This document shows positions 4,433 to 28,232 of a stretch of DNA of 64,000 nt, one piece after another. The stretch comes from an uncultured Planctomycetia bacterium. Lineage in GTDB: Bacteria; Omnitrophota; Gorgyraeia; Gorgyraeales; Gorgyraeaceae. The notes under the pieces are model-generated. The model saw only the letters and a list, made by a program, of their open reading frames with translations, did no database searches and was not told the origin of the DNA. Both the position numbers and the translations under genes were made by a program. The stretch is taken from contig CAYPYS010000002.1 in NCBI GenBank assembly GCA_964415355.1, forward strand, positions 74,475-138,474, written 5' to 3'. Each line of letters opens with the position of its first letter. Position 1 is the stretch's first letter.

Positions 4433-4786
4433 TCAGAAAAGTCGTTTTTTTAAGAGTTTTACCCCTATTTCATATGCCGGGTCTTCCGCGTCATCTCTTG
4501 CGGTAAGCTCTTCGAACCACATTACCTTTGCCTTGGATGACAGGGATCCATTGCTATTAGGATCTTCTATTTCCAGTTCAACCGTATGCCCTTTCTGGAT
4601 CTTTTTGTCCACGGGGAACCTTAGGCCATTTCGGGAGATATTTTTTGTTATGCTTTCGCCTCGAGAATCTGACTCGGGATCGAAATATTTTAGCTTCAGC
4701 AGGGCGTCGTATCTCTTCGCGGATCTGCGATCGTCGACAAACCTTTCTTCTCGTTTTGTTTTAAATAACCTTGATGGTATTCTCAT
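4433..4786 (-). CDS. PilZ-domain protein (c-di-GMP receptor)
   Basis: RRSAKR (RxxxR) and NISRNG ([D/N]xSxxG) PilZ motifs. Confidence 0.7.
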   Translation of the reverse strand: MRIPSRLFKTKREERFVDDRRSAKRYDALLKLKYFDPESDSRGESITKNISRNGLRFPVDKKIQKGHTVELEIEDPNSNGSLSSKAKVMWFEELTARDDAEDPAYEIGVKLLKKRLF

Positions 4787-4799
4787 GTTTTACCTTGTT

Positions 4800-4838
4800 C
4801 TAACTTTACACTTTAACGTTGTTGAAATGTAAAGTTAG
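4800..4838. repeat. R1 palindromic element
   Basis: ctaactttacactttaacgttgttgaaatgtaaagttag. Lies between two PilZ genes and contains the stop of 4835-5173. Confidence 0.9.
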
Positions 4839-5173
4839 AGGTTATTGATGAGTCTGCTTATGTAAAGTAGTTGCCTATCCAGGAACTTTATGCCAGCTTC
4901 AAAATGTTCCTCGCTCTCTTTGCTCATAGGCTCATCCCAGATCCAGACTACCTTCCCCCTGCAGCGCGCTTTTATATCCGAGTTATACCTGAATATTTCC
5001 ATATCCAGCGTGGTTCCCGGAGATAGGCTTTTTAAAAGAGACATCCTGACCCCACCCGCGCTGATATTCTTTGTGGTTGTGCAGAATTCCCTATTGCTTC
5101 CAACGGGGCTATACCTTACTGCTAATTCTTTGTCCAGACGTTCGAAGATTCGGCTGTCTGTACTGATACGCAT
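4835..5173 (-). CDS. PilZ-domain protein
   Basis: RIFER (RxxxR) and NISAGG motifs. Stop codon lies inside the R1 repeat. Confidence 0.7.
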   Translation of the reverse strand: MRISTDSRIFERLDKELAVRYSPVGSNREFCTTTKNISAGGVRMSLLKSLSPGTTLDMEIFRYNSDIKARCRGKVVWIWDEPMSKESEEHFEAGIKFLDRQLLYISRLINNL

Positions 5174-5610
5174 GCACTCCCCCTTTCTTTGAACAGCTTT
5201 TCTACTTTGAATTTATTTATTGCCCTGAAAGAGAAAAAATATGCAAATGGAGATACAGTGGGATTGACCAATTGATCAATAAAGATATGCAGGGCCAGGC
5301 TCATGGTCGCGTATATCCATAAGATGTTTAGATCGAACCTGAAGATGAGCAGCCATGATATGAGCACTATTTCATATGAATGCAGGAAAATCACTATTTT
5401 GTCAAAATTCTTGTAACTGTCCCTGCACTCGACGTATATTTTTTTGAGATCGAAACCCAGGCCGCGTTCTCTGACATAATCTATATAGTGATCGATGTCT
5501 ATAAGCACGCCTGCCGAGAGAAACATAAAGAAACCGGGCACAGACTGAGTGGCTTTATAAAGTATGCTTCCCAGGGTCAGCGTGATTATGGAATGTCCAA
5601 TAACACTCAT
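5122..5610 (-). CDS. Integral membrane protein, possible YdjM/DUF457-type metal-dependent hydrolase
   Basis: 162 aa, His-rich TM helices (GHS..., LHIFID). 3' end overlaps the PilZ gene by 52 nt. Confidence 0.4.
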   Translation of the reverse strand: MSVIGHSIITLTLGSILYKATQSVPGFFMFLSAGVLIDIDHYIDYVRERGLGFDLKKIYVECRDSYKNFDKIVIFLHSYEIVLISWLLIFRFDLNILWIYATMSLALHIFIDQLVNPTVSPFAYFFSFRAINKFKVEKLFKERGSACVSVQTAESSNVWTKN

Positions 5611-6527
5611 TCTAGTTTTGTGCCGTCATAAGGACAATAGTTGGTCTTGCCCGAGTAGATTTTTCTGCAGACAGGACACATTACCTTAAGAGGCTGTTCT
5701 TTGTTGGGCTCAGACGCTAAATTTGTAATTTTTTGCTCTTCAGATCGAGAAGATGGTGTTGCTGGTTTTTGCTCAGGGTCATTGTCAGCTTTATTTATTA
5801 TTTCCGGTATCTCGTTTTTTAGCATTTTTATTCTCTGTGACGCGTAGGGGTGGGTGCGTAAAAATAAAATGCCCTTTCCGCCCTTATCTTTTTTTTCCAG
5901 TTTTTCAAGGAATGTTATCATGGCGTTGGGATCGTAACCGGCTTTGTACGCATATTTTACCCCAAGCCTGTCTGACAGGAGCTCGTCTTCCCTGGAATAA
6001 CCGAGCATGATCAGATTGTAGCTGATAGAGGCCGCTTGTCGCAATTCCCCTAGTCCTGCCTTTTGGGCGGCGATGTTCATTAATATGTCGTATCCGATTT
6101 TAGCCTGAAGTTTTTTAACTATATGACGCGCTGCGACGTGTCCGATTTCATGGCCTACCACGCAGGCGAGTTCGTTGTCAGTGGATTCTTCGATAAGACC
6201 TGAGTTTACGTAGATATAGCCGCCTGGTGTCGCAAAGGCATTGAGTTCCTCGTCTTCTATAACAGAAAAATTATACCTTAGATCTTTTCGGTCCGATACC
6301 TTGGCTAATTCAGAACCTATTTTATTTAGTCGTTTTATTTTTTTCTGGTCGTTGCTTATTTTGTACTGCGTTGATACTTTGGTGGCGACTGCTTTTCCTA
6401 AAGAGACCTCAGCGGGGGTGCCTATGAAGATAAACTCGTTCTGGCCGGTTGCGGGGTTATATATGGTGGCGCAGCCCGATAAAGCGAATGAAGTTGCCAA
6501 TAATAATATTAGACAACACTTTGACAT
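5607..6527 (-). CDS. M48-family Zn-metallopeptidase lipoprotein (BepA/YcaL-like) with a C-terminal zinc ribbon
   Basis: Lipobox LSGC. HEIGH in VVGHEIGHVAARH. C-terminal CPVCRKIYSGKTNYCPYDGTKLE. Confidence 0.8.
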   Translation of the reverse strand: MSKCCLILLLATSFALSGCATIYNPATGQNEFIFIGTPAEVSLGKAVATKVSTQYKISNDQKKIKRLNKIGSELAKVSDRKDLRYNFSVIEDEELNAFATPGGYIYVNSGLIEESTDNELACVVGHEIGHVAARHIVKKLQAKIGYDILMNIAAQKAGLGELRQAASISYNLIMLGYSREDELLSDRLGVKYAYKAGYDPNAMITFLEKLEKKDKGGKGILFLRTHPYASQRIKMLKNEIPEIINKADNDPEQKPATPSSRSEEQKITNLASEPNKEQPLKVMCPVCRKIYSGKTNYCPYDGTKLE

Positions 6528-6567
6528 ATTTGCAACACCTTTGATGGTAGGTTACAAATCCGCTTGC

Positions 6568-6606
6568 CTAACTTTACATTTCAACAACGTTAAAGTGTAA
6601 AGTTAG
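6568..6606. repeat. R1 palindromic element
   Basis: ctaactttacatttcaacaacgttaaagtgtaaagttag. Confidence 0.9.
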
Positions 6607-6608
6607 CT

Positions 6609-7061
6609 TTATGCTGTTAGCAATTTTTGAACTATTGAGGTGACTAGTTTTCCGTCAGCCTGCCCTTTTAACTCCTGCATGGTTAATTTCATTACCTTGC
6701 CAAAGTCGGATTTTGAACGTGCTCCTGTCTCGGCTATGATCTTTTTTATTATCTCTTCGACCTTGTCGTCTCCCAGCTGTTCAGGCAGATACGATTTAAG
6801 TATCTTGAGTTCCTTTGTCTCTTTTTCAGCCAGGTCAGCCCTGTCCCCTTTTTTAAAGCTTTCAATGGAATCATTTCGCTGCTTTGCCTGTTTTGATAGC
6901 ACCTTGATTACGTCCTGATCTTCAAGCGCGCCTACCTTTTTTTCGATAGCAAGGTTTTTCATCGAGGCGATCATCATGCGGAGCGTCGAGGTGCGGAGCT
7001 GGTCTTTATTTTTAATAGAATCCTTAAGGTCATTCGTTATTTTTTGTTCAAGTTTTCCCAT
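6609..7061 (-). CDS. GatB/YqeY-domain protein
   Basis: 150 aa. Typical YqeY length and charged helical composition (…LRMMIASMKN…). Confidence 0.65.
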   Translation of the reverse strand: MGKLEQKITNDLKDSIKNKDQLRTSTLRMMIASMKNLAIEKKVGALEDQDVIKVLSKQAKQRNDSIESFKKGDRADLAEKETKELKILKSYLPEQLGDDKVEEIIKKIIAETGARSKSDFGKVMKLTMQELKGQADGKLVTSIVQKLLTA

Positions 7062-7077
7062 TCAGGACCTCTCTTTT

Positions 7078-7488
7078 TTATTTATTAGCTTTTGAAGGCG
7101 CCTTTATCTTCAGGCTATCCAGCTCGCTCAGTTTTCCTACCTTTTTATACATCAGATCGCATAAAAACCTTAGAAAGGTATTTTTGTTGTCTTCTTCAAC
7201 ATCGCTAAATTCAATTCCGGCTCCGTAAGACGGACCTTTATTAGTACCGATCTCTTTTGACCACATCACTATACCGTTTAGATGGGCCGGATTCAGCGCG
7301 CCCGGGATAAATATTTTTAACATCAGCTTGTTGCCGTTTTCCAGCTTTTCTTCCGTTAAGAGCTGTAATCCCCCGGCGCTTACGTCTTTAGTTATCCCTG
7401 TTCTTTCAAGCTTAATATCCTTCTTTTGGACGATAAAATTTACTTTCAGGGAGATATCGAACCTTATAAATCTTCTTTTCTCTTTCAT
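7078..7488 (-). CDS. PilZ-domain protein
   Basis: RRFIR and DVSAGG motifs. Confidence 0.7.
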   Translation of the reverse strand: MKEKRRFIRFDISLKVNFIVQKKDIKLERTGITKDVSAGGLQLLTEEKLENGNKLMLKIFIPGALNPAHLNGIVMWSKEIGTNKGPSYGAGIEFSDVEEDNKNTFLRFLCDLMYKKVGKLSELDSLKIKAPSKANK

Positions 7489-7490
7489 GG

Positions 7491-7982
7491 TCAGCTCACT
7501 TCCTTTATTGTTAGTTTCGGGCGAGCAATAGATTTGTATATCACCCCAGCCTCTTTAAAAAGAGGCAAAAAACTTTTATCCGCATACTCGCCGCAGGTTA
7601 TAAAACTTTTCACCTTTGCGTTTACGATCATTTTGGCGCACAATATGCAAGGAGAATGAGTGCAATAAATAGTACTACCATCTATATTAATGCCATGAAG
7701 ACCTGCTTGTATTATAGCGTTCTGCTCTGCGTGTATCGCGCGGCATATTTCGTGCCTTTCGCCTGAAGGTATGCCTTTTTCATTTCTCAGGCAGCCGAGT
7801 TTCAGGCAATCTTTTACCCCTCTCGCGGCCCCGTTGTATCCCGTAGTGAGTATGTGCTTGTCCCTGACGATCACTGCGCCCACGTGATGCCTGCGGCATG
7901 TGGAACGCTCTGCGACCAGAAAAGACATCTTTAAAAAATATTCATCCCAATCAGGTCTTTGGATTCTTTTCGATCGCTTCAT
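7491..7982 (-). CDS. dCMP (deoxycytidylate) deaminase, ComEB-like
   Basis: HAEQNAI and PCILCAKMI zinc-binding motifs. N-terminal RPDWDEYF. Confidence 0.8.
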   Translation of the reverse strand: MKRSKRIQRPDWDEYFLKMSFLVAERSTCRRHHVGAVIVRDKHILTTGYNGAARGVKDCLKLGCLRNEKGIPSGERHEICRAIHAEQNAIIQAGLHGINIDGSTIYCTHSPCILCAKMIVNAKVKSFITCGEYADKSFLPLFKEAGVIYKSIARPKLTIKEVS

Positions 7983-8499
7983 CTATCTTTCTGCGGAATT
8001 CTTTCAGCCCGGAGTCGTTTACGATGATCACATCGGCCATGCCCAGGCATTTTCTAAGCTGCTGGTTATTTTTTTCTTCCTTGTTTTCTTTTTCTTCTTT
8101 TTTAATAAATTCTTCCAGGGTTTTTGCGTCTCCGGGCCTTTTTCTCTTCAAGCCTCTTTCGTGCCTTAATTTTACAGGCGCGTTTACCCCTATTAATACA
8201 AAATCATCCAGTTTTCTGAGCTCAGCTATCTCTTCCGGGTTTCTTATGGAGTCGACTACATGGTCTTCTTTTTTTAGCAGCTCTTCTTTTATTCTGACCG
8301 CTAAGCAGGAAGGCCCGAATTCTTCCCTGAGCTCATTTCCTAATCTTATAAGGTTTTCGCGCAGGGGTTCTATTTTTCTTTTTATCGCCTCATCTCTTAA
8401 TACATCTGAAAGAGAATGATAAAGAAACCCCTTGGATTTTATATAAAGAGCAGCTTCGCCTTTTCCCGAAGCATTAGGACCGGTGAGTCCTATGATCAT
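7951..8499 (-). CDS. P-loop nucleotide/nucleoside kinase (dephospho-CoA-kinase-like fold)
   Basis: Walker A GLTGPNASGKGE at the N-terminus, 182 aa. Overlaps the deaminase gene by 32 nt. Confidence 0.5.
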   Translation of the reverse strand: MIIGLTGPNASGKGEAALYIKSKGFLYHSLSDVLRDEAIKRKIEPLRENLIRLGNELREEFGPSCLAVRIKEELLKKEDHVVDSIRNPEEIAELRKLDDFVLIGVNAPVKLRHERGLKRKRPGDAKTLEEFIKKEEKENKEEKNNQQLRKCLGMADVIIVNDSGLKEFRRKIDEAIEKNPKT

Positions 8500-8500
8500 G

Positions 8501-8827
8501 CTATTTCACTGTTGAGCCTGGCGAAATGTCTTTGTCAGGAGAAAGGACTACTATTTTTTCGCTGTCAGAAGCCGCTAGCACCATGCCCTTACTTTCGACG
8601 CCACGAATCGTAGCAGGCTCTATGTTTTCGACCACAGCCACTAGTTTTTCCTTTAGATCTTCCGGCTTATAAGACTTTTTTATCCCTGCGACTACTTCTC
8701 TTTCTTCTGAGCCCAGGTCTATCTTTAGGATATAAAGCTTATCGGCATTAGGGTGGTCTTTTACCTCTTTTATTCTGGCTATTTTTATGTTCAGTTTCTT
8801 GAATTCCTCAAATGGAATCATGATCAT
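8501..8827 (-). CDS. tRNA-binding domain protein (CsaA/Trbp111/EMAP-like)
   Basis: KDHPNADKLYILKIDLG ... GMVLAASD. Start reassigned to MIMIPFEEF (ATG at 8827), giving an ATGA overlap with the upstream PilZ stop. Confidence 0.7.
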   Translation of the reverse strand: MIMIPFEEFKKLNIKIARIKEVKDHPNADKLYILKIDLGSEEREVVAGIKKSYKPEDLKEKLVAVVENIEPATIRGVESKGMVLAASDSEKIVVLSPDKDISPGSTVK

Positions 8828-9183
8828 GCCCTCGCCTTCTCTAGCTCGGAAAACATAAGACCGCATATGTATTCCAAGAAGTTGTTTTTTGCTTTCAGGT
8901 CTATTTCTTCGAATTTAATCCCAATGTCTATTTTACCAGCTTTTTCGCCAACTGTCCATACTACCTTGCCTATGGCAGAAATAGGCCTTAGTAGTGCTGG
9001 TATGAAGATTTCCATCTCAAGCCAATCCCCTTTTTTAATCTGCTTTGGTAATAATGCTCTTATGCCGCTGGGGCTTATGTTTTTAGTGACGGCTTTTTTT
9101 GGCGGCGTCTTCGAATCCTTGATCTTATAGGTAAAGTCCAAGGCTGCTTCTAATCTGATATACTTTCTTCTCTCTTTTATCAT
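8824..9183 (-). CDS. PilZ-domain protein
   Basis: RRKYIR and NISPSG motifs. Confidence 0.7.
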   Translation of the reverse strand: MIKERRKYIRLEAALDFTYKIKDSKTPPKKAVTKNISPSGIRALLPKQIKKGDWLEMEIFIPALLRPISAIGKVVWTVGEKAGKIDIGIKFEEIDLKAKNNFLEYICGLMFSELEKARA

Positions 9184-9311
9184 ATGCTATAGCCTCCATT
9201 GTCGAATATTGCGGTTTTACTGGGGAATTTTACAGATATGCAAGGTGGATTTCTTCGCGGGGATGGCACGCCTGTACCTGTGCCTAGCAAGGTTATTTCC
9301 ATATTTTCTGT

Positions 9312-9349
9312 TAAGTATACATTTTAACGTTGTTGAAATGTATACTTAG
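9312..9349. repeat. R1v (GTATACA-arm variant) palindromic element
   Basis: taagtatacattttaacgttgttgaaatgtatacttag. Contains the stop of 9346-9825. Confidence 0.85.
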
Positions 9350-9825
9350 TCTTTGACCACCTTTAGCTTGTTTAAATGCGTTAGTAATATGGCTTCTGAT
9401 TCAGGAGCTATCTTTATAAATTTTATCCCTACGTAAAACAGGCGCCTGCCTCGCTCATCCTGAGACTGCATGTCCTTTATCCACATAACCTGTCCTATAA
9501 ACTTCACGGGCTTTGAAAACCCGGGGACCTCTACCTCTAGATCAAGATGTTTCTTTTCATTAAGTTTTTCATAGGTCAGAAGACAGAGTCCTTTTTTTGA
9601 AAGATTTATAGTCTTGGATTCCTGGAAACGGGGCGCTTTGGGCAATAGATTGTATCCGATCTTAAGGTTCTCATCAAACCTGACATACATCCTTCTTTCC
9701 CTCAGCTCCCAGAATTTCCTGGCCAGGCCATGGGTAGTGCTTTTTTTAAGCCTTTTCTCCTCGTTTTTTAGCAGGATCAATATTATACATAAAAATATCA
9801 GTAAGGTTGAATAAAATAAATACAT
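9346..9825 (-). CDS. PilZ-domain protein with an N-terminal TM anchor
   Basis: N-terminal hydrophobic helix, RERRMYVR and INLSKKG motifs. Stop inside the R1v repeat. Confidence 0.65.
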   Translation of the reverse strand: MYLFYSTLLIFLCIILILLKNEEKRLKKSTTHGLARKFWELRERRMYVRFDENLKIGYNLLPKAPRFQESKTINLSKKGLCLLTYEKLNEKKHLDLEVEVPGFSKPVKFIGQVMWIKDMQSQDERGRRLFYVGIKFIKIAPESEAILLTHLNKLKVVKD

Positions 9826-9827
9826 CT

Positions 9828-10907
9828 CTATACCTCGACCAGTTCGTATTGACTCGACCCTAATTTTATTTTTTCACCGTAATTTATTTGTATCGAGGGA
9901 TCTATTTCAGGAAAGATTTCTTTGAATTTACCCATGCCTATCAGGTCAATGCTCGCTTTGTCTATTGCGACAGGGTCGAGCCCGCCTATTATTCCGATAT
10001 CTTGCGTGATAGGGGTTTCGTTTTTTGACATACAGTCACAATTCTTGGTTATATTATATAATAAGTTCATGTACGCTATCTTGGAATTCAGCGCCTTTTT
10101 TACCCCTAGGGCATATTCTACCATCTTTTCCTGGAATTTTGCAACATTTTCGTCATATTTTATCTCGATCGCGCCTGTCCGGCAGATCACAGTGCATTCT
10201 CCGCAGCCAATGCATCTTTCCTTTACCAATATGGCCTTTTTCTTTTTTATGCCTATGGCGTTGGCTGGACAGATATCCATGCATGAGCCGCAGCCGATGC
10301 ATTTATCGGCTGTTATCTCAGGGATGGTCTTGGAATGCTGCTGTAGCTTGCCGGCGCGGGAAGCGCAGCCCATGCCGAGGTTTTTAAGGGCTCCTGCGAA
10401 GCCTGTTTGCATGTGACCTGTTATGTGGGAAAGGCATGCAAGGGAGTCACTTTCGCATATCCCTTTCGCCAGCTTAACGTTTTCAAAATGATCGCCCTGG
10501 ATCGGCACATTCTTGGTGTCCCTGCCCAGAAGGCCGTCGCCTATTATTATAGGAATGCCCAGGCTTTGTAAGCTGAATCCATGTTTGTGCGCGACATTGA
10601 GATGACCGACAGCGTTTGATCTTTTTTCTCTATAGAGCGTATTTGTCTCAGCGACGAATAGATTTTCTGTTTTTTGTTCTTTGAGATACCTTATTAAATC
10701 CAGAAGCCAGTCAGGCTTGATGTAGCCTGAGGTCCCCTCTTCGCCGAAGGTCAGTTTTATCGCAAGAAAATCACCTTTATTGACGAGTCCCGGGGTTTCT
10801 ATTTGTTGCCAGACAGACAGGAGGGCCCTTCCTACCTCGTCTTTTGCTGACCAATCATTGATCCTTTTAAGATATACCTTTGTTTTTTCTGTCTTGGGCT
10901 TCTGCAA
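9828..10907 (-). CDS. DUF362-type protein with two 4Fe-4S ferredoxin motifs
   Basis: CIGCGSCMDICP and CIGCGECTVIC clusters. 359 aa. Confidence 0.55.
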   Translation of the reverse strand: MQKPKTEKTKVYLKRINDWSAKDEVGRALLSVWQQIETPGLVNKGDFLAIKLTFGEEGTSGYIKPDWLLDLIRYLKEQKTENLFVAETNTLYREKRSNAVGHLNVAHKHGFSLQSLGIPIIIGDGLLGRDTKNVPIQGDHFENVKLAKGICESDSLACLSHITGHMQTGFAGALKNLGMGCASRAGKLQQHSKTIPEITADKCIGCGSCMDICPANAIGIKKKKAILVKERCIGCGECTVICRTGAIEIKYDENVAKFQEKMVEYALGVKKALNSKIAYMNLLYNITKNCDCMSKNETPITQDIGIIGGLDPVAIDKASIDLIGMGKFKEIFPEIDPSIQINYGEKIKLGSSQYELVEV

Positions 10908-11982
10908 ATGCTATCCTCCTTGAGATCGGCGGATGGTTATACAGGATTATCTCGTAGAATTTACCGGGAGCTACATCCGAAAGATTTTGAGATGCTAATT
11001 TTTTCATGGTAGATATAAATCCGCCTTTATTTTTTGTGATATCCAGAGCAAACATATCCGCATCGCGCTCCAGCCTTCTTGAATACGAGTTCTGTATCGG
11101 TGTGGAGATTATGTTCAATGACGTGATAATGGCGTAGATCATCACCAGCGATTCGAAATCAAAAAGACGCGCGTAATTCAGGGTATTGTGCAACGTCAGG
11201 AAAAGGTAGTTTGAAATAAAAAACGTTAAAAGCGTCGCAATGCCACTGAATGCAATGGATTTTAATATGTGTTTTAATTTGTGATGCCCCAGCTCGTGAG
11301 CCATCACGACTTCTATTTCCTTGTCGTCAAAGTTTTTAAGCAGCGTGTCGCATAATACTATTCTTTTTTGTCTGCCCAGGCCCATAAGAGCCGCGTTAGC
11401 TTTTTTTGTATCCTTGCTTATGTTCAACTCGTACACACCCTCAGTTTTAAAGCCTACTCTTGACGATAGCCGCATGAGTTTTTGTTTCAAGTTTTCGTTT
11501 TTAATGGGAGAGTATTTATAGAATAGCGGGATTATGAAGATGGGGAAAAACTTGGCGATCAATATAGAAATGAAAAACCAGAGCACCGCGGTCAGCAGCC
11601 ACCAATGCAATGGCCAATACCTCAGGAATACGTATAGCGATACAACAAATGGTATGCTGAGAACAAAAGAAATCGCGTATTTTTTGACTTCTCTGTTTAA
11701 CCAGGTCTTAAATGTCTGATTTGAAAGGGAAAATTTATGCTCTAGCGTGAAACCTGCGTAGTGCGCGAGAGGCAAGGTTATGATCGTGTAAAATAGGCTT
11801 GTAATCGCGTAAAAAATAAGTAGGGCCAGATAACTATTAGAGGTAAAGGATTGCGCGATTAACCTTATGTATACAGGGATGCCAGAAAACACAAAGGCGA
11901 ACAACAGGATAGGGTGTAATAAAATATTTAATATGCCCAATATGTGTTTTTGCCTTGAATAGGCCTTTGCCTTATCTTGCAT
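10867..11982 (-). CDS. M48-family integral-membrane metallopeptidase (Ste24/HtpX-like)
   Basis: MAHELGHHKLKH HExxH within multi-TM protein, 371 aa. Confidence 0.7.
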   Translation of the reverse strand: MQDKAKAYSRQKHILGILNILLHPILLFAFVFSGIPVYIRLIAQSFTSNSYLALLIFYAITSLFYTIITLPLAHYAGFTLEHKFSLSNQTFKTWLNREVKKYAISFVLSIPFVVSLYVFLRYWPLHWWLLTAVLWFFISILIAKFFPIFIIPLFYKYSPIKNENLKQKLMRLSSRVGFKTEGVYELNISKDTKKANAALMGLGRQKRIVLCDTLLKNFDDKEIEVVMAHELGHHKLKHILKSIAFSGIATLLTFFISNYLFLTLHNTLNYARLFDFESLVMIYAIITSLNIISTPIQNSYSRRLERDADMFALDITKNKGGFISTMKKLASQNLSDVAPGKFYEIILYNHPPISRRIAFAEAQDRKNKGIS

Positions 11983-12512
11983 CAGCGTTTTTCCATGTAG
12001 ATATTTCTAATAGCGTTGAGGGCATCTATGTATTCCCTGGCCCTGTAGTCAGGATACGTCCAGTCTGTTGGTTGAAAGCCTGATTTTCTCCACATTAGCG
12101 TTACTTCGCCGTATATGCCGTCTCTCAGATAGAGTCTGTGGCAGTAATCTTTTGTTGTGGCAAGGACGAATTTCGAATCAGACAGGTATCCTGGATCTAT
12201 GTTTATGCGTCTCTTTACTCCGCCATTTTTCTTTACAGAGAGATCGTCCTCGAGAGAGTTTGTGGCGAGTTTTATCTGCGGCAGGCGTTCCGGTGATATG
12301 CGCTCTTTAAAAGAGATGAATTTTCTATTCAGCGGGTGCCCCATCTCTTCTTTGTAATAATCTGTATATTTAAATGGGATCAAGGAGCTCTTATAGTCAG
12401 TAGGCCCGAATTCTTTAATAAAAAACTCTTCGATATCGTCGAAGAGTTTTTTATTTTTTGCCAACATGCCTATGACTAATTTGACTTGCTGAGGAATCTT
12501 TGTTTTCCCCAT
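11982..12512 (-). CDS. Hypothetical protein (DUF4416-like)
   Basis: 176 aa. FIKEFGP...IDPGYL pattern. Family assignment from memory only. Confidence 0.4.
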   Translation of the reverse strand: MGKTKIPQQVKLVIGMLAKNKKLFDDIEEFFIKEFGPTDYKSSLIPFKYTDYYKEEMGHPLNRKFISFKERISPERLPQIKLATNSLEDDLSVKKNGGVKRRINIDPGYLSDSKFVLATTKDYCHRLYLRDGIYGEVTLMWRKSGFQPTDWTYPDYRAREYIDALNAIRNIYMEKR

Positions 12513-12519
12513 ATCGTGT

Positions 12520-13002
12520 TTATAATTTATAGCCTATTTTTCTTAACAGTTCTTTTCTCTTCCCGACTTCTTCTTCGCCTTCTATTCCTTTAGGCGCTGA
12601 ACCATCCACCACGCCCAGTATGCATTTGCCCTGCTCGGTCTCCGAGACAATGACCTCTATATTGTTTGCAGTGGCGCAATATATGGAACATACCTCGGGC
12701 ACGTTTTTTATCGCCCTGAGCACGTTTACGGGATAGGCGTCTTTCATGATGATTATAAATGAATGCCCTGCGCCGATATCCAGAGCGTTTTTCGCGGCTA
12801 TTTTTTTAAGATCATCATCGTTGCCTTCGCATCTTACCAGGCACGGACCCGATGCCTCACAAAACCCAACACCAAATTTTATATTAGGCACGGAATTTAC
12901 CATGGCCTCATATATATCTTCCGCTGTTTTAATGAAATGCGCCTGGCCTATGATCGCATTCGCGTTTTTTGGTACGTCTATTTTTACGACTTTTGTTTTC
13001 AT
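12520..13002 (-). CDS. Adenosine-specific-kinase-like (PF04008-like) protein
   Basis: 160 aa. IIGQAHFIKTAEDIYEA...IGAGHSFII pattern resembles the archaeal-type adenosine kinase family. Function not certain. Confidence 0.5.
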   Translation of the reverse strand: MKTKVVKIDVPKNANAIIGQAHFIKTAEDIYEAMVNSVPNIKFGVGFCEASGPCLVRCEGNDDDLKKIAAKNALDIGAGHSFIIIMKDAYPVNVLRAIKNVPEVCSIYCATANNIEVIVSETEQGKCILGVVDGSAPKGIEGEEEVGKRKELLRKIGYKL

Positions 13003-13011
13003 TTTTAAGGC

Positions 13012-13050
13012 CTAAGTTTACACTTTAACGTTGTTGAAATGTAAAGTTAG
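13012..13050. repeat. R1 palindromic element
   Basis: ctaagtttacactttaacgttgttgaaatgtaaagttag. Contains the stop of 13047-13448. Confidence 0.9.
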
Positions 13051-13448
13051 GAGAGTTTTATGTCGACTTCCTTGATCGTTCCAGGATTAGCGCTTCCTGA
13101 TTCTACGTAGGACTCCAGGGCCTTCCTGTCCTTTTCGGAAATGTCCGTAAAGAATATGGCGGTGTTATGGTGCGCCTTGTCAGTGTTTTTCAATATTACG
13201 GGTTCTGTCCTGACCACGACCCCCTTGCACCTTATTTTTTTAGCCTGCTTGGGCCTAGAGCTATTTTTCTGCGGCACCATAAGCACTACTTCTATCTTGG
13301 ACATCAGCGGAAGCAGCCTTGTCACCCTGCAGTATATCCCGCTTGAACTTACATCCACGGTCTCCGTGATTATGTCGAATGCCTTGTCGGCGATCTTGAG
13401 CGGGAGGCTGCCTTTTGCCCTGAGATGTTTTCTGCGCTCTTCTATCAT
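13047..13448 (-). CDS. PilZ-domain protein
   Basis: RRKHLR and VDVSSSG motifs. Stop inside R1. Confidence 0.65.
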   Translation of the reverse strand: MIEERRKHLRAKGSLPLKIADKAFDIITETVDVSSSGIYCRVTRLLPLMSKIEVVLMVPQKNSSRPKQAKKIRCKGVVVRTEPVILKNTDKAHHNTAIFFTDISEKDRKALESYVESGSANPGTIKEVDIKLS

Positions 13449-13455
13449 GATTTCT

Positions 13456-13890
13456 CTATGCCTTCTTCTCTTCTTTTTTAGCTTCTGCTTTTTTCTTGTC
13501 CTGGTCTGCCAGCTTCCAGCATCTTTTGCTGCAGTAATAGCCGTTGTTCCTGTAATACCAGGATTTTCTTTTCAGGTGTTTGTTGCATTTCATGCAGTTG
13601 GTCGGTTTTTCAATTACCTGAGGTTCTTTTGGTTCTTTCTTTTCTTTAGCAGGCGCCTTTGGCGTTTCTTTGGGGGTCTCCTGAGGGGTCTCCTTGGGAG
13701 CTTCTTTGGAAGTCTCTTTAGGCGCCTCTTTGGGCGTTTCTTTGGTGGTTTCTTTTGTTGGTTCTTCAGCCGGAGCCGGTTCTTTCTTTGCTTCTTCTTT
13801 CTTGGGCTCTGCCTTTGCCTCTTCAGGCGCCTTTACTTCTTCCTGTTTTTCTTCCTGAGGCTGCTTAGCTTCTTTTGCTTCGTCTGCCAT
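13456..13890 (-). CDS. Low-complexity K/E/P/T-rich protein with a C-terminal C-x2-C-x17-C-x2-C zinc finger
   Basis: Tandem KETPKEAPKET repeats. C-terminal CMKCNKHLKRKSWYYRNNGYYCSKRC. Confidence 0.5.
   Translation of the reverse strand: MADEAKEAKQPQEEKQEEVKAPEEAKAEPKKEEAKKEPAPAEEPTKETTKETPKEAPKETSKEAPKETPQETPKETPKAPAKEKKEPKEPQVIEKPTNCMKCNKHLKRKSWYYRNNGYYCSKRCWKLADQDKKKAEAKKEEKKA
13676..13762. repeat. ~12-nt tandem repeat (≈7 units) encoding KE(T/A)PKE tetrapeptide repeats
   Basis: Direct reading shows tcctgaggggtc / tccttgggagct / tctttggaagtc / tctttaggcgcc / tctttgggcgtt ... Confidence 0.5.
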
Positions 13891-14545
13891 GATTTATCCT
13901 CCGAATCGGGCATTTAGTGCACATAGGATTCTTTGAGCTGCAAAATTCTTTACCTAGTTCCACTATAAGGGCATGGAATTCGTTATACAGTTTTACGTCT
14001 TTAGGAAGGTTATCCTGAAAAAGTTGTTGCCATCCCTCGTATTCTGCTTCCTGGGCTGCAAAGCCATGCCTTGAAAATACCCTTTTCGTGTAGGCATCAA
14101 CAACAAATACAGGTTTTCCTCCCGCATACAGGAGTATGCTGTCGGCCGTCTCCGGTCCGATCCCTTTTATCCCAAGAAGCTCGCTTCTTAGCTTCCGGGT
14201 TTTCGTTTTGAGCATTCGGTCCAGGTTGCCTCTGTATTCAGCATTCAGAAAGCTCAAAAAATTCTTTACGCGATTAGATTTTATGTTGTAATATCCGGCC
14301 GGCTTTATCAGCTTTGCAAGTTTCTTTTCCGATATGCGCGTAAGCGGCCCTAACTTTAAGATCCTTTCCCTTTTTAGGTTTTTAATCGCTTTTTCGACAT
14401 TTTTCCAGGCTGTATTCTGAGTAAGGATAGCCCCTAAAATTATTTCTAATCTCGTGTCGCCCGGCCACCAATGTCTCGCCCCGAATTTTTCATAGAGCAG
14501 GTTATATATTTTTAAAAGCGATTTAGAGCAGCTGGTGTCTTTCAA
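13865..14545 (-). CDS. HhH-GPD base-excision glycosylase (endonuclease III-like)
   Basis: LGIKGIGPETADSILLYA HhH-GPD motif. Cys residues at the C-terminus. Confidence 0.7.
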   Translation of the reverse strand: MKDTSCSKSLLKIYNLLYEKFGARHWWPGDTRLEIILGAILTQNTAWKNVEKAIKNLKRERILKLGPLTRISEKKLAKLIKPAGYYNIKSNRVKNFLSFLNAEYRGNLDRMLKTKTRKLRSELLGIKGIGPETADSILLYAGGKPVFVVDAYTKRVFSRHGFAAQEAEYEGWQQLFQDNLPKDVKLYNEFHALIVELGKEFCSSKNPMCTKCPIRRINHGRRSKRS

Positions 14546-15402
14546 TGCTCTGAGCGTTCTTTTATTTTAGCAGCTATATCAGTCATCTCTTTGCAGTATC
14601 TGGAATTTATTGCAACAGGAGCTTTTACGCGTTTTTCCTTTTGAGTATGCTCCTTAAAGGCTGACATCGTAAGCATTGTTGAATTTTCATTCCCTGTTAT
14701 ATTCACGGACAGCGTAAGCCTGTGGTCTATTTTAGCGGTTGCATCTGACCATAACTCGCTTATTAAAGAGAGCTGGATAGGCTTATAGGCCAAGAGCGCG
14801 CCTATTCCCCTGTTTGATGAGGTGATTAAATAACCATTTTCTCTTAGGAGCAGGGATGCGTAGGAGAAAACTGTCCCAGGGTCTTTACCTATGGTTGTTT
14901 CTACGGTGTATCCTTTTTGGTAGACCGCGGATCGAGAGAACGAGTCGGGTATCTCCGTGGTCGTCTTTTCTTCCCCTCCAGGACCCAAATACGTCCAGCC
15001 CCCTGCCTTTCTTCTTGCTGCCGGTCTTCCTTTGCTTTTAGGGCCCAGATGCGTCCATTCTCCCGCTTCTTTTTTCTCGTATATTTTTTTTGGTTCTTCT
15101 TTGTAAATGATTATATCGTCGCCTTCCTGTATTTCCTTTCCCTGGCTTACATTCAGCACTTCTGCAGCAGATACATTTTTTAGCGCCTCGACGACATATG
15201 CATCGGCGATCTTTTCGAGGTCCCTGTGAACGATAAGCCCGTCACCCAGCTCTATCCCCTCGTCTGCGCCGGCTTTTATTATAAAAAATTCCTGTTCAGG
15301 GTCAACGCTCATGACTTCTGATTCGATCTCTGTTTCTGCAGAGAATGAATAAGAAACAGTGGAGGCTAAAAATAATAATAGAATCAATGAAATTTTTTTC
15401 AT
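14542..15402 (-). CDS. Secreted hypothetical protein
   Basis: 286 aa, signal peptide MKKISLILLLFLASTVSYSFSA. Duplicated GGWT(H/Y)LGP segments. Confidence 0.5.
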   Translation of the reverse strand: MKKISLILLLFLASTVSYSFSAETEIESEVMSVDPEQEFFIIKAGADEGIELGDGLIVHRDLEKIADAYVVEALKNVSAAEVLNVSQGKEIQEGDDIIIYKEEPKKIYEKKEAGEWTHLGPKSKGRPAARRKAGGWTYLGPGGEEKTTTEIPDSFSRSAVYQKGYTVETTIGKDPGTVFSYASLLLRENGYLITSSNRGIGALLAYKPIQLSLISELWSDATAKIDHRLTLSVNITGNENSTMLTMSAFKEHTQKEKRVKAPVAINSRYCKEMTDIAAKIKERSEH

Positions 15403-15448
15403 CAGGTGTCATTGTAATACAGAATCATATAGAACTCAAGCAAAATTT

Positions 15449-15487
15449 TCAACTTTACATTTCAACAACGTTAAAGTGTAAACTTAG
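15449..15487. repeat. R1 palindromic element
   Basis: tcaactttacatttcaacaacgttaaagtgtaaacttag. Confidence 0.85.
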
Positions 15488-15507
15488 AGAGGATTCGGAA
15501 GGGTTGC

Positions 15508-15939
15508 TTAGTGGATGGAGTACTTGCAGCCTTTGTCGAAAGCGTTTTTGAAGTCGTATCTGTTGTTAAAGTCTAATTTTGAATCTTGTTCTGTCTTCCC
15601 GAGGATGCCGGCGTTTATCATATTGAACACTATCTCGCCAAAATCATTAGTTGTCTTTATGCCCCAGTGCTCAAAGACTATCCTTGCCATGGGTCCAAAC
15701 TGCTCAAGGGCGTAGTCTTTTATCCCGTCAAGAAGTTCCTGCCCGCTTACATGCCCTTTTCTCTTAAGCTTTTTGCTGGTATGGGTCAGCGCGGACATGA
15801 CAAAGGAATACGATTCCGGGTCGTATCTCTTGTCTTTGGTCAGAACCTTCAGTAATGCATATATCTTATTTATGCTGAATTTGCTGCTTCTCTCGCCCAT
15901 AGTTCTACAAAGTATACCTGTCGATAGCTTATTTGTCAA
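15508..15939 (-). CDS. Hypothetical protein
   Basis: 143 aa ORF with good coding character. No motif recognised. Confidence 0.45.
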   Translation of the reverse strand: MTNKLSTGILCRTMGERSSKFSINKIYALLKVLTKDKRYDPESYSFVMSALTHTSKKLKRKGHVSGQELLDGIKDYALEQFGPMARIVFEHWGIKTTNDFGEIVFNMINAGILGKTEQDSKLDFNNRYDFKNAFDKGCKYSIH

Positions 15940-15951
15940 GGCGATGAGAAG

Positions 15952-16251
15952 TTAGATAGTTATAGGGGGGCCTAAGAATTTCGCGCCCACAGAAAACCTT
16001 TCAGAATACGGCTGGCTCGATGCCCAGACAACTTCCCCTACTGCTTTTATGTAGCTCTTGGTCTCCGGGTGCTGGACTTCGAATATCAGGTGGGTGCGAA
16101 TAGGAAAATACTCGTTCGAGATAAAGCCTATACCGTTTTGGCTTATATCCCGTCCTATCGAATTGCCGAATCTTTGGGAGCCTTTTCTCTGGTAGCGGAT
16201 AGCGCAGGATAGCGGGATCCTCATTGATTCTCTTTTGTCAATAGCTTTCAT
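15952..16251 (-). CDS. PilZ-domain protein
   Basis: RESMR and DISQNG motifs. Confidence 0.65.
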   Translation of the reverse strand: MKAIDKRESMRIPLSCAIRYQRKGSQRFGNSIGRDISQNGIGFISNEYFPIRTHLIFEVQHPETKSYIKAVGEVVWASSQPYSERFSVGAKFLGPPITI

Positions 16252-16282
16252 GACATCATTCTAACACATAACTTATTGCTTG

Positions 16283-16657
16283 TCAAGAAGTTATAGTCTG
16301 TTGCGCTGATTCCCCGAGGATCTTTTTTACTATTACGTCTATCCTTTCCGCGTCATCTTTCTTTAAATTAGTGAATTCTATGCCTGTGTCATATAGTTTA
16401 TTATTTTGCTGTTTTTTCTCTACTATCCACACTATGGCCCCGTCGCATTGAATGGCCGGCTTATTGTCTAATATATCAAGCTGTATCTCAACGGGTGCGA
16501 ATATCCCAAGGTCTTTAGGGAGCACAGTGCATATGCCTCCTATGCCTATGTTCTGTGTTTGCGAAGACAACATGTCTGACCTGTCTTTTCTTCTTACGGT
16601 TATTTTGCACGGGTATTCAGCTCTTGGAAACTTACGCTTGTTGATACCACTCCACAT
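16283..16657 (-). CDS. PilZ-domain protein
   Basis: RKFPR and NIGIGG motifs. Confidence 0.65.
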   Translation of the reverse strand: MWSGINKRKFPRAEYPCKITVRRKDRSDMLSSQTQNIGIGGICTVLPKDLGIFAPVEIQLDILDNKPAIQCDGAIVWIVEKKQQNNKLYDTGIEFTNLKKDDAERIDVIVKKILGESAQQTITS

Positions 16658-16728: not shown

Positions 16729-16767
16729 CTAACTTTACACTTTAACGTTGTTGAAGTGTAAAGTTAA
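16729..16767. repeat. R1 palindromic element
   Basis: ctaactttacactttaacgttgttgaagtgtaaagttaa. Lies in the divergent region between a PilZ gene and ExeA. Confidence 0.9.
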
Positions 16768-16774
16768 TTTTTAA

Positions 16775-16811: not shown

Positions 16812-17624
16812 ATGTATCTCCATTATTATGACCTCAAAGAAAAGCCTTTTAGCGTAACAGCCGATCCTAATTTTCTCTATCTCAGCAAAAAGCACCAGGA
16901 AGCTATCTCTCACATGCAATATGGCATAAGCGAACGCATGGGTTTTTTGGAGATCTCCGGAGAGATAGGCACCGGGAAAACTACGGTATGCAAGGCCCTG
17001 CTGAATACCCTTGACGAGCACACGAAAACAGCGTTTATTCTAAATTCCAATCTTTCCGAGATACAGCTTATACAGGCCGTGGTCGAAGATCTTGGCATAC
17101 GCTTGAAGAATAAAAATAAGTTTACGATGATCAGCGAGCTGAACAGGTTTTTATTGGAACAGTTGAGTCATGACAATAATGTCGTGCTCATCATAGACGA
17201 GGCCCAGAACCTATCCCTCAGATTACTCGAGCAGGTCCGCTTATTGTCGAATCTCGAGACCGAAAAAGAGAAATTATTGCAGATAATCCTGGTCGGACAG
17301 CCTGAATTGCGGGAAAGGCTGGCATCGAAAAAACTTACGCAGCTGAGGCAGAGGATCGCTATAAGATATCACATGCTGCCACTGGACAAGGGTGAAGTCG
17401 AGGGGTATATGAGCCACAGGCTTAATATAGCCGGTTCTAACGGCAGGAGGTTTTTTGAGCAGGACGCAGTGGAAGAAGTGTTTAATTTTTCCAGAGGCAT
17501 TCCAAGGCTGATTAATATCATATGCGACAAGGCTCTCCTGGCGGGATTCGTATTCAAGAAAAAATCCATACGGGCGGACGCGATAAAGAAATGCGCCAAA
17601 GAGATAGAAGGCATTTTTGATTGA
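16812..17624 (+). CDS. ExeA/GspA-like AAA ATPase (type II secretion / pilus assembly-associated)
   Basis: GEIGTGKTTVCKAL Walker A, LIIDEAQNL Walker B, ExeA-like length. Confidence 0.7.
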   Translation: MYLHYYDLKEKPFSVTADPNFLYLSKKHQEAISHMQYGISERMGFLEISGEIGTGKTTVCKALLNTLDEHTKTAFILNSNLSEIQLIQAVVEDLGIRLKNKNKFTMISELNRFLLEQLSHDNNVVLIIDEAQNLSLRLLEQVRLLSNLETEKEKLLQIILVGQPELRERLASKKLTQLRQRIAIRYHMLPLDKGEVEGYMSHRLNIAGSNGRRFFEQDAVEEVFNFSRGIPRLINIICDKALLAGFVFKKKSIRADAIKKCAKEIEGIFD

Positions 17625-17636
17625 TAGAAGGATCTT

Positions 17637-18176
17637 ATGAGCATAATAAACGACGCCATTAAAAAAGCGAGAAAAGAATTTGAAATAAAAAGCGAAAGTA
17701 TTGTCGGGCCTGCTAATTTTGGTCAAGGCAAAGAAGTAGCTACGGCGGGACCTAAGGCTACAGAGGTAAAATGGATAATAGTGGTCGTTGTATCACTTGT
17801 GTTTATTATTGTATTATTGGGCTCTATGTTCCTGTACAGGTATATGTCAAGAATAAATGCAGCAGATATTGATCTTGCGCCAAATAAGGCCGCTATTAGC
17901 AAAACCGTTCCAAAGAAAGAAGTAACCAGGGCCCCCGCGAATGATAAACGCTACAAAAGAACCAAGCCAAAGCCAAGCCCGCTCAGCAAAAGAACCATTG
18001 GTATAATAGAATTAAACGGGATCGTCCATGGACCGGAAGGCAAATGGGCGATTATAAATGATAGGATAACCAGGGAAGGCGATTCTGTCCCGAACGGAAA
18101 ACTTTCTCATATAGCGGAACGTTTTGTGAAGATTAAGATGGATAATGGCGAAGAAATTACTCTGGAGCTGAGGTAG
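17637..18176 (+). CDS. Single-pass membrane protein, possible GspB/ExeB-like partner of ExeA
   Basis: 179 aa, TM helix WIIVVVVSLVFIIVLLGSMFL. 13 nt downstream of ExeA. Confidence 0.45.
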   Translation: MSIINDAIKKARKEFEIKSESIVGPANFGQGKEVATAGPKATEVKWIIVVVVSLVFIIVLLGSMFLYRYMSRINAADIDLAPNKAAISKTVPKKEVTRAPANDKRYKRTKPKPSPLSKRTIGIIELNGIVHGPEGKWAIINDRITREGDSVPNGKLSHIAERFVKIKMDNGEEITLELR

Positions 18177-21372: not shown

Positions 21373-21387
21373 AGTTAACTCCTTCTT

Positions 21388-21413
21388 GGATTCCCGCTTT
21401 CGCGGGAATGACA
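21388..21413. repeat. R2 GC-rich hairpin element (GNRA tetraloop on the minus-strand transcript)
   Basis: ggattcccgctttcgcgggaatgaca, 3 nt upstream of the SD of the SH3b gene. Confidence 0.85.
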
Positions 21414-21430
21414 ATTTTGAAGTATATATT

Positions 21431-21489
21431 CCAACAACGTTAAAGCCTGCCCCGCGTGACTTAAGGAAGTAAAGCGGGGTGTAAAGTTA
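21431..21489. repeat. R1 element interrupted by a 35-bp GC-hairpin insertion (21446-21480)
   Basis: ccaacaacgttaaag + [cctgccccgcgtgacttaaggaagtaaagcggggt] + gtaaagtta. Contains the stop of 21487-21768. Confidence 0.75.
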
Positions 21490-25180: not shown

Positions 25181-25189
25181 CGGAAATCT

Positions 25190-25215
25190 GGATTCCCGCT
25201 TTCGCGGGAATGACA
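25190..25215. repeat. R2 hairpin element
   Basis: ggattcccgctttcgcgggaatgaca, in the dgt 5' leader. Confidence 0.85.
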
Positions 25216-25219
25216 CATG

Positions 25220-25258
25220 TTAACTTTACACTTTAACGTTGTTGAAGTGTAAAGTTAG
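25220..25258. repeat. R1 palindromic element (adjacent to R2)
   Basis: ttaactttacactttaacgttgttgaagtgtaaagttag. Contains the stop of the HIT gene. Confidence 0.9.
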
Positions 25259-25716
25259 GTAAGCAGTTTGCGTAATTCTTTTAGCGATTGCGGCACGACT
25301 TTCGTCTGTCCTATGACAGGCATAAAGTTCGTGTCGCCAGACCACCTGGGAACGATATGTATATGGACATGCCCTCTGTAGCCGGCTCCGCCTACCTTAC
25401 CCGTGTTTATACCTATGTTAAAGCCATGTGGTTTTAATTTTTTTTCAAGCAGGCGCTGCATTTCTTTTACCAAAACCATCATATCCAGAAGCTCGTTGTC
25501 TCTCAATCCTGTCAGGTCTTTTATGTGCCTGTAGGGCGAGACCATCACATGACCATTATTATATGGGTATATGTTCAATATGGCAAACGAGAATTTAGAT
25601 TTTTTGATGATATATCCATGGCTGTCTCTCTTATTTTTCTTGATACAGAATATGCAGCCTTTGTTTTTCTTTTTCTTTACAAATTTACTTCTCCATGGTG
25701 CCCACAATCTGTCCAT
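25255..25716 (-). CDS. HIT-family (histidine triad) nucleotide hydrolase
   Basis: HVHIHIVPR triad. Stop inside R1. Confidence 0.8.
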   Translation of the reverse strand: MDRLWAPWRSKFVKKKKNKGCIFCIKKNKRDSHGYIIKKSKFSFAILNIYPYNNGHVMVSPYRHIKDLTGLRDNELLDMMVLVKEMQRLLEKKLKPHGFNIGINTGKVGGAGYRGHVHIHIVPRWSGDTNFMPVIGQTKVVPQSLKELRKLLT

Positions 25717-28158: not shown

Positions 28159-28232
28159 TGGAGCGGGTGATGGGAATCGAACCCACGCTGCGAGCTTGGG
28201 AAGCTCGTGTTCTACCATTGAACTACACCCGC
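28159..28232 (-). tRNA. tRNA-Gly (anticodon CCC)
   Basis: Minus-strand GCGGGTGTAGTTCAATGGTAGAACACGAGCTTCCCAAGCTCGCAGCGTGGGTTCGATTCCCATCACCCGCTCCA. Cloverleaf with a TTCCCAA anticodon loop. Encoded CCA. Confidence 0.8.

Follow-up and report, generated by a model that had tools for sequence, protein, structure and literature searches.

To our knowledge, characterised stand-alone PilZ receptors of cyclic di-GMP (c-di-GMP) are encoded singly, usually beside the system that they target, and not as an array of eight. Here we describe such an array in a genome of the Omnitrophota, a phylum of uncultured bacteria of very small size that probably depend on a host or prey on other cells, and in which signalling is essentially unstudied. 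The array lies in a stretch of 64,000 nucleotides from GenBank assembly GCA_964415355.1 (contig CAYPYS010000002.1, positions 74,475–138,474 of the forward strand), hereafter referred to as the window, and coordinates are counted from its first nucleotide. In Bdellovibrio bacteriovorus, a set of 15 PilZ proteins in 3.8 Mb has been described as unusually large (PMC3271064), and in Leptospira interrogans seven PAS-GGDEF paralogues stand in tandem (LIC_11125–11131; PMC12943098). As for the Omnitrophota themselves, which have been proposed to be predators or host-dependent cells, small pilZ genes, noted for their conserved position, and type II secretion system (T2SS)-like loci were described around giant genes (preprint 10.1101/2023.11.21.568195).

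The array comprises eight stand-alone PilZ open reading frames (ORFs) of 99–159 amino acids, all on the minus strand and all within 12.2 kb (4433–16657). In the order in which they are transcribed, they are:

16283–16657, minus strand: PilZ-16283, 124 amino acids, with RKFPR and NIGIGG (Ser to Gly); Pfam score 51.4 bits
15952–16251, minus strand: PilZ-15952, 99 amino acids, with RESMR and DISQNG; Pfam score 35.5 bits; found only in tier 1 of the related loci defined below
13047–13448, minus strand: PilZ-13047, 133 amino acids, with RKHLR, DVSSSG and a loop insertion; Pfam score 33.6 bits
9346–9825, minus strand: PilZ-9346, 159 amino acids, with an N-terminal transmembrane (TM) helix, RMYVR and NLSKKG; Pfam score 35.2 bits
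8824–9183, minus strand: PilZ-8824, 119 amino acids, with RKYIR and NISPSG; Pfam score 51.3 bits; missing from one tier-1 subclade
7078–7488, minus strand: PilZ-7078, 136 amino acids, with RRFIR, DVSAGG and a near-invariant C-terminal helix IEEDNKNTFLKFLCDLMY; Pfam score 51.8 bits
4835–5173, minus strand: PilZ-4835, 112 amino acids, with RIFER and NISAGG; Pfam score 36.4 bits
4433–4786, minus strand: PilZ-4433, 117 amino acids, with RSAKR and NISRNG; Pfam score 41.5 bits; last gene of the array and tandem partner of PilZ-4835

A first-pass annotation had placed eight PilZ ORFs at these coordinates, and all of them were found there. Alignment to the PilZ hidden Markov model (HMM) PF07238, which had been named beforehand as the test that could refute the assignment, gave scores above the gathering score of 22.5 bits for every protein (33.6–51.8 bits, E-values of 5e-8 to 1e-13). 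The same annotation had credited all eight with both c-di-GMP-binding motifs. This was correct for RxxxR, which is located near the N-terminus in each protein, whereas [D/N]xSxxG is present in seven, the exception being PilZ-16283 with its variant NIGIGG. No second Pfam domain was detected in any of the eight, all of which are single-domain proteins, and the matches of PilZ-7078 and PilZ-16283 to TIGR02266 (50 and 28 bits) stayed below the cut-off of 68.7 bits. When the 494 stop-to-stop ORFs of the window were searched with an HMM built from the eight, no further PilZ protein was found.

The unusual local density that had been proposed for these genes was confirmed. PilZ genes account for eight of about 23 genes inside the 12.2 kb and for none of about 47 in the rest of the window (Fisher p = 5e-5), and at the density of Bdellovibrio the Poisson probability of finding eight of them in 12 kb is 7e-16. 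They are arranged as three adjacent pairs (4433/4835, 8824/9346 and 15952/16283) and two singles amid housekeeping genes, in agreement with the earlier description, and these surrounding genes are almost all co-directional. Misassembly can be excluded, because the same locus was found in five independent metagenome assemblies. On the sequence evidence presented below, we favour as the probable explanation a collinear array of eight distinct, specialised stand-alone PilZ c-di-GMP receptors, derived from ancient duplications and kept within a backbone of housekeeping genes.

To obtain related loci, species-representative genomes were scanned with the PilZ-7078 alignment, which returned 80 loci whose ORFs were then mapped onto the genes of the window. 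All 80 come from Omnitrophota metagenome-assembled or single-amplified genomes, although some third-party assemblies carry the label 'Planctomycetia'. Tier 1 consists of 33 species-level loci and, in addition, the closest relative (L044), and tier 2 of 46 loci with 35–47% identity to PilZ-7078. Tier-1 loci are all collinear and keep the gene order of the window: ExeA (in reverse orientation), 16283, 15952, TIGR04138-family gene, lipoprotein, EndoIII, K/E-rich gene, 13047, (AdoKin), DUF4416, M48, DUF362, 9346, 8824, tRNA-binding gene, kinase-like gene, dCMP deaminase, 7078, YqeY, M48, membrane protein, 4835, 4433 and AsmA-like gene. All eight PilZ genes were found in this order in five other species, and the subclade without PilZ-8824 also lacks YqeY. 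Across the 33 tier-1 loci, each PilZ protein of the window is 46–77% identical to its own positional orthologue, as opposed to 16–34% when compared with the other paralogues. In tier 2, orthogroup HMMs still recognised 16283, 13047, 9346 and 7078, in collinear order and with margins of 19–111 bits.

Since each paralogue has its own orthogroup, in the same slot, in other species, the duplications predate the divergence of these lineages, and the array is a fixed feature rather than a local burst. The synteny comparison therefore supports the earlier suggestion that the expansion is old and its paralogues divergent, with four groups reaching tier 2. It does not support an expansion peculiar to this genome, as the collinear array is kept across the lineage.

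Several observations on individual loci accompany this picture. In the closest relative, two ORFs (92% and 87% identity; region L044:10001–10323) together make up the orthologue of PilZ-7078, a split due either to a frameshift or to an assembly error, and the other seven PilZ genes are intact. Tier-2 loci contain an extra member of the 7078/8824/9346 subfamily directly upstream of the K/E-rich gene. A tier-2 gene provisionally called 'PilZ-x' was rejected as an orthologue of PilZ-15952, given a profile score of 61 compared with 117–119 for the 7078/8824/9346 subfamily, and another, 'PilZ-y', turned out to be a STAS-PilZ fusion of about 240 amino acids near the end of the array (L069:14278–15012, L079:13593–14303 and about 30 other loci), without counterpart in the tier-1 array. 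Downstream of this fusion we noted a pentapeptide-repeat/ion-channel protein and a GAF-ANTAR regulator. The idea of a more compact ancestral array was discarded, as tier-2 arrays span 3–12 kb and are likewise interleaved with housekeeping genes. HD-GYP genes seemingly present in tier-2 arrays were short BLAST matches to the GAF part of GAF-ANTAR proteins; true HD-GYP genes occur in some loci only.

Purifying selection acts on each PilZ gene to the same degree as on the neighbouring enzymes. When compared with the closest relative, the ratio of non-synonymous to synonymous substitution rates (dN/dS) was 0.05–0.17 for the PilZ genes and 0.03–0.13 for flanking housekeeping genes, and median tier-1 identities were 55–67% for PilZ genes and 43–80% for neighbour genes. 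Both RxxxR arginines and the motif Gly are 100% conserved in all eight orthogroups where the position is occupied, and the motif D/N is conserved in all orthogroup sequences but one. Among individual genes, PilZ-4835 has 26 orthologues (54–76% identity, motifs 100% invariant, dN/dS 0.05), PilZ-15952 nine (46–64% identity, motifs invariant, dN/dS 0.06) and PilZ-4433 has 23 (38–61% identity). PilZ-13047, the most divergent paralogue, lies 7 bp downstream of the K/E-rich zinc-finger gene and has 22 tier-1 orthologues (58–72% identity), with counterparts in 19 tier-2 loci (margins of 54–92 bits). The N-terminal membrane anchor that had been assigned to one of the proteins is indeed present in PilZ-9346 (hydropathy 2.66) and is kept in 37 of 39 orthologues over both tiers. 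Regarding PilZ-7078, we retrieved 106 database homologues, and all those with a named source are from Omnitrophota/Omnitrophica. PilZ-16283 homologues show a similar source pattern, one of them originating from Ca. Gorgyraea atricola. This protein is encoded by the first gene of the array, which is transcribed divergently from an ExeA-type ATPase gene; its orthologues are found in both tiers, and its family alignment (A2) reveals invariant MWxGI..RxFPR and TxNIGxGG.

Folds were predicted for two of the eight proteins with AlphaFold2. The PilZ-7078 model (mean predicted local distance difference test, pLDDT, of 78) consists of a six-stranded barrel and a helix at residues 99–128, and the PilZ-16283 model (pLDDT 88.8) of a six-stranded barrel and a long C-terminal helix. 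The top 36 and top 31 PDB matches, respectively, are all PilZ proteins, and most of the best ones are c-di-GMP complexes (MotI/DgrA, MrkH, YcgR, Alg44, PA0012, MapZ and BcsA). Altogether, HMM and motifs identify the eight as canonical PilZ proteins, an assignment that the predicted fold supports for two of them, in line with their initial description as true single-domain PilZ proteins.

As to how such a set would work, each PilZ protein may bind c-di-GMP through its N-terminal RxxxR and its [D/N]xSxxG strand and then serve as a small adaptor whose own conserved surface acts on a partner that differs from protein to protein. By virtue of its TM helix, PilZ-9346 would exert its effect at the membrane; PilZ-7078 and PilZ-8824 would use their conserved Cys-containing C-terminal helix, and PilZ-16283 is probably linked to the divergent GspA/MshM-type ATPase. 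The clustering most likely results from old local duplications (7078/8824/9346 and 4433/4835) combined with retention in a slowly rearranging backbone. In the array, 14 of 22 same-strand junctions overlap or measure at most 16 bp, a spacing that suggests shared transcripts for receptors and housekeeping genes, whereby the receptors would be constitutively present.

We then considered the genes that accompany the array, of which the following are of particular relevance:

16812–17624, plus strand: ExeA/GspA/MshM-type AAA ATPase (Pfam AAA_22), divergent from the array and its most constant non-PilZ neighbour
17637–18176, plus strand: 179-amino-acid protein with one TM segment and without Pfam or NCBIfam match, downstream of the ATPase
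13456–13890, minus strand: K/E/P/A-rich protein with a C-terminal CxxC-x18-CxxxC zinc finger seen in its sequence (weak LIM match only)
11982–12512, minus strand: DUF4416 protein (Pfam PF14385, 206 bits), in the array in both tiers
6609–7061, minus strand: GatB/YqeY-domain protein (Pfam YqeY), 16 bp downstream of PilZ-7078 and near it in both tiers

These five genes, that is, the ATPase with its 179-amino-acid partner and the genes for the K/E-rich, DUF4416 and YqeY proteins, are the non-PilZ genes that persist across tiers. The ATPase and 179-amino-acid genes are the only plus-strand genes in the area, and the latter adjoins ExeA in tier-1 and tier-2 loci, so that the pair is co-conserved beside the array. 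When compared with TIGR03015, the PEP-CTERM-locus ATPase family, the ATPase aligned over positions 1–266 of 269 and reached 317.3 bits, against a cut-off of 324.5. The K/E-rich gene, which lies inside the array in both tiers, carries 12-nt tandem repeats encoding TPKE and APKE units, and its finger contains YCSKRC, like FCS/TRASH types. Directly downstream of PilZ-15952, in tier 1, is the gene for a protein of the TIGR04138 'Minf_1886' family (15508–15939, minus strand; 150 bits), a conserved hypothetical family labelled Planctomycetes/Verrucomicrobia in NCBIfam.

This persistence raises the possibility that the PilZ proteins regulate the adjacent products (ATPase and 179-amino-acid partner, K/E-rich, DUF4416 and YqeY proteins) as one coordinated system, for example by placing under c-di-GMP control a machine resembling type II secretion systems or type IV pili with which the cells interact with a host or prey. 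Apart from the shared retention of the same non-PilZ genes, in 21 of the 24 loci where this could be observed, a PilZ gene starts within 600 bp of the ATPase gene on the other strand, 16 of these genes being confident PilZ-16283 orthologues. This divergent ATPase–PilZ arrangement is the sole adjacency kept throughout and the one lead that the gene neighbourhood provided. In tier 2, moreover, a PilZ gene stops some 3 bp short of the K/E-rich gene, PilZ-9346 overlaps DUF4416, and DUF4416 is found in nearly all loci beside PilZ-9346 or PilZ-7078; the preprint on pilZ and T2SS-like loci around Omnitrophota giant genes (10.1101/2023.11.21.568195) points in the same direction. Against this, all adjacencies except that with ExeA shift between tiers (in tier 1, DUF4416 lies four genes from PilZ-9346, and the K/E-rich gene comes after EndoIII). 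Both tiers have unrelated housekeeping enzymes in between, though not the same ones, and no secretion or pilus structural genes were found in the 64-kb window, in which twenty of the large ORFs beyond the array have housekeeping functions. We therefore regard a single coordinated system as possible but, on balance, unlikely.

A broader and more speculative reading, to which we assign a lower probability still, would see in the locus an ancestral Omnitrophota c-di-GMP receptor hub. In it, five to eight specialised PilZ adaptors would be embedded in a housekeeping super-operon, at least one of them (PilZ-16283, with its Ser-to-Gly change) being dedicated to the divergent GspA/MshM-type ATPase, and c-di-GMP would gate a secretion- or pilus-like machine together with several core processes in host-dependent nanobacteria. 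If true, this would be a receptor organisation without described counterpart.

Another possibility is that some or all of the PilZ proteins have lost c-di-GMP binding or recognise a different nucleotide, and work as adaptors without need of a ligand, as the pilus PilZ proteins of Xanthomonas and Pseudomonas do. The presence of Gly in place of the motif Ser throughout the PilZ-16283 family would fit, and family members appear in some JGI records under the name 'Tfp pilus assembly protein PilZ'. We examined PilZ-16283 as a candidate Xanthomonas-type pilus PilZ and rejected it: its profile touches Xanthomonas pilus PilZ chains only marginally (E-values of 0.03–0.05), and these are absent from the best structural matches, which are canonical binders, the predicted model being closest to c-di-GMP-bound PilZ structures. 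Proteins of the PilZ family that do not bind c-di-GMP typically lack RxxxR and [D/N]xSxxG, whereas here RxxxR is invariant in eight groups and the full second motif is present in seven. Loss of ligand binding across the array thus appears improbable, and PilZ-16283 is the least certain receptor because of its invariant Ser-to-Gly change.

The first-pass annotation had offered two functional readings of the array, c-di-GMP control of many separate processes or a 'sponge'. In the latter, eight co-expressed small binders would soak up c-di-GMP and set a threshold, without individual targets; single domains, intact binding motifs and a co-directional, operon-like layout that could give joint expression are compatible with such a buffer. 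It would need the ligand site only, yet outside the binding motifs we counted 17 invariant columns in the PilZ-7078 alignment (A1) and 16 in that of PilZ-16283 (A2). The PilZ-7078 orthogroup keeps an NP.H loop and the helix IEEDNKNTFLKFLCDLMY, the PilZ-16283 orthogroup keeps MWxGI at the extreme N-terminus and a DTGxEF strand, and TM anchor or C-terminal helix are likewise retained between distantly related genomes. Nor have the paralogues been homogenised, being distinct at 16–34% identity. By profile comparison with hhalign, 7078, 8824 and 9346 form a subfamily (scores of 122–136; 8824 reached 136 with 7078 and 122 with 9346), 4433 and 4835, each other's looser partners, scored 85, the best match of PilZ-4433, and 13047 and 16283 are isolated; the adjacent 15952 and 16283 are not sisters (score 35). 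Ancient local duplication hence accounts for part of the array only. Orthogroup-specific conservation of this kind fits separate adaptors with separate partners, and the TM anchor, the C-terminal helices and the 16–17 invariant non-ligand columns are consistent with control of many separate processes. A pure sponge fits poorly, as it leaves the conservation of non-ligand surfaces unexplained, and we consider it very improbable.

The PilZ genes had also been described as mostly flanked by a repeat, R1, a 39-nt near-perfect palindrome (CTAACTTTACAYTTYAACRWYGTTRAARTGTAAAGTTAG) that folds into an A/U-rich hairpin of 15–18 bp (z = -3.9 to -6.0). The window contains 19 copies, with none expected by chance, among them:

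4800–4841 (between PilZ-4433 and PilZ-4835), 6568–6609, 9311–9352, 13012–13053, 15449–15490 and 16729–16770: R1 copies in the array
2331–2372, 25220–25261 and 59228–59260: examples of further R1 copies

R1 does abut six of the eight PilZ genes and occupies all six array gaps of at least 40 bp, and most of the larger intergenic gaps of the window contain a copy. A specific association with PilZ was nevertheless rejected, since copies are spread over the whole window, PilZ junctions are not enriched (4 of 13, versus 2 of 10 for other junctions) and the repeat was found in this organism only, plus one copy in its closest relative. No Rfam family matched R1 at gathering thresholds. R1 is a REP-like genome-wide intergenic element with no relation to how the array arose. 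A recent tandem expansion confined to this genome, with R1 as its possible driver, is thus refuted despite the three adjacent pairs and the six R1-flanked genes, for every paralogue has same-slot orthologues in other species, R1 is missing there bar the single L044 copy and scattered here over the entire window, and the adjacent 15952 and 16283 are not sisters.

A second repeat, TGGATTCCCGCTTTCGCGGGAATGACA (21387–21445 and 25189–25247), overlaps the 5' ends of two ORFs and gives both an identical, artificial-looking N-terminus, MSFPRKRES. The true starts of these SH3-domain and dGTPase genes are probably downstream of the repeat. An Rfam scan of the window returned a single tRNA (28162–28232) and no riboswitch.

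Several points weigh against specialised c-di-GMP receptors maintained as a set. Ligand binding is predicted from the motifs, and in the PilZ-16283 family the motif Ser is replaced by Gly in all 32 aligned members, so that binding of c-di-GMP by this protein may be weak or absent. None of the ORFs of the 64-kb window contains a GGDEF or EAL motif, and c-di-GMP synthesis by this organism is taken from a preprint statement about other Omnitrophota (10.1101/2023.11.21.568195). In addition, adjacency between a PilZ gene and a specific neighbour is mostly not kept between tiers, the ExeA pairing being the exception, and the retention of ExeA, the K/E-rich gene, DUF4416 and YqeY roughly equals that of the PilZ genes, so that the synteny may reflect a stable backbone and not selection on PilZ clustering.

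The earlier annotation had further reported a GAF/HD-GYP phosphodiesterase 6 kb from the array:

22579–24048, minus strand: GAF and degenerate HD-GYP protein (Pfam HD_5, 156 bits, plus GAF)

Both domains are present. The protein aligns over its full length with PmGH from Persephonella marina (4MCW; 317 residues, E-value 5e-39), with which it shares the GAF + HD-GYP architecture and HHExxDGxGYP, kept here as HHERYDGSGYP. In contrast, it reads LLPDTGK where PmGH has MHDIGK, a His-to-Pro change that turns the HD dyad into PD, 'pNtytH' replaces 'pEtqnH', and an extra Cys-rich N-terminal region of about 160 amino acids has no family match. Positional orthologues (L054:982–2550 and L055:928–2472) keep HD, but the first His and a later Asp are missing from them; all have the GYP motif. 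Because the His of the HD dyad is missing and orthologues lack other metal ligands, phosphodiesterase activity is doubtful, and this degenerate HD-GYP lineage is possibly a sensor rather than an enzyme.

Taken singly, the proteins described here are ordinary PilZ domains; what is unusual is how their genes are organised, and the analysis reveals no new mechanism. Still, the collinear set of c-di-GMP receptors recurs in at least 80 species-level genomes and is conserved to the degree of their core enzymes, suggesting that c-di-GMP sensing is a central and ancient trait across the recovered genomes. For researchers in c-di-GMP signalling and on Omnitrophota, the array offers reagents for tests, namely eight receptor families, one of them membrane-anchored and one with a variant motif, and a candidate receptor–ATPase pair, and it can be used as a synteny marker of the lineage.

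Finally, we compared the array with known PilZ systems. Ligand-independent PilZ proteins of type IV pili (PA2960/XAC1133 type) lack RxxxR and [D/N]xSxxG; the presence of RxxxR in all eight proteins sets them apart from this type. They do not belong to the YcgR type either, because the N-terminal YcgR/PilZN domain is absent from all of them, and the designation 'YcgR' in some JGI records is a generic name. Their closest counterparts are the stand-alone receptors MapZ/PA4608 (1YWU, 5Y4R) and PA0012 (8U0I), with the same barrel, RxxxR, [D/N]xSxxG strand and C-terminal helix. MotI/DgrA (5VX6), which gave the best structural match, has two domains, of which the PilZ domain is the one that matches. 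Identity to characterised PilZ structures is only 12–20%, and the Omnitrophota groups have extensions of their own, namely the TM anchor, the EEDNKNTFLKFLC helix and the MWxGI N-terminus.

With regard to the repertoires of predatory or social bacteria, the PilZ-rich Bdellovibrio likewise has many, mostly small PilZ receptors relative to c-di-GMP enzymes (PMC3271064), and Myxococcus xanthus has the TIGR02266 family of paralogous PilZ proteins, to which PilZ-7078 and PilZ-16283 show the sub-threshold matches given above. We found no report of clustering for either repertoire, whereas here eight genes lie in 12 kb in conserved order. In the literature searched, which omits most subscription-journal papers, no description of a conserved multi-gene PilZ array was found; this is not proof of novelty.

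The giant-gene locus of the same phylum contains the same kind of pilZ genes, a giant gene being followed by one or several pilZ genes, with sugar transporters (10.1101/2023.11.21.568195). A link to it was rejected, as the largest ORF has 877 amino acids in the window and at most 1,334 amino acids in related loci; the array is a separate locus, since no giant ORF is present here. The Leptospira array resembles ours in being a local, multi-copy group of c-di-GMP signalling genes (PMC12943098). It consists of cyclases in strict tandem and is serovar-variable, with PilZ genes scattered over the same genome, whereas the Omnitrophota array is made up of receptors that are interleaved with housekeeping genes and stable across species.

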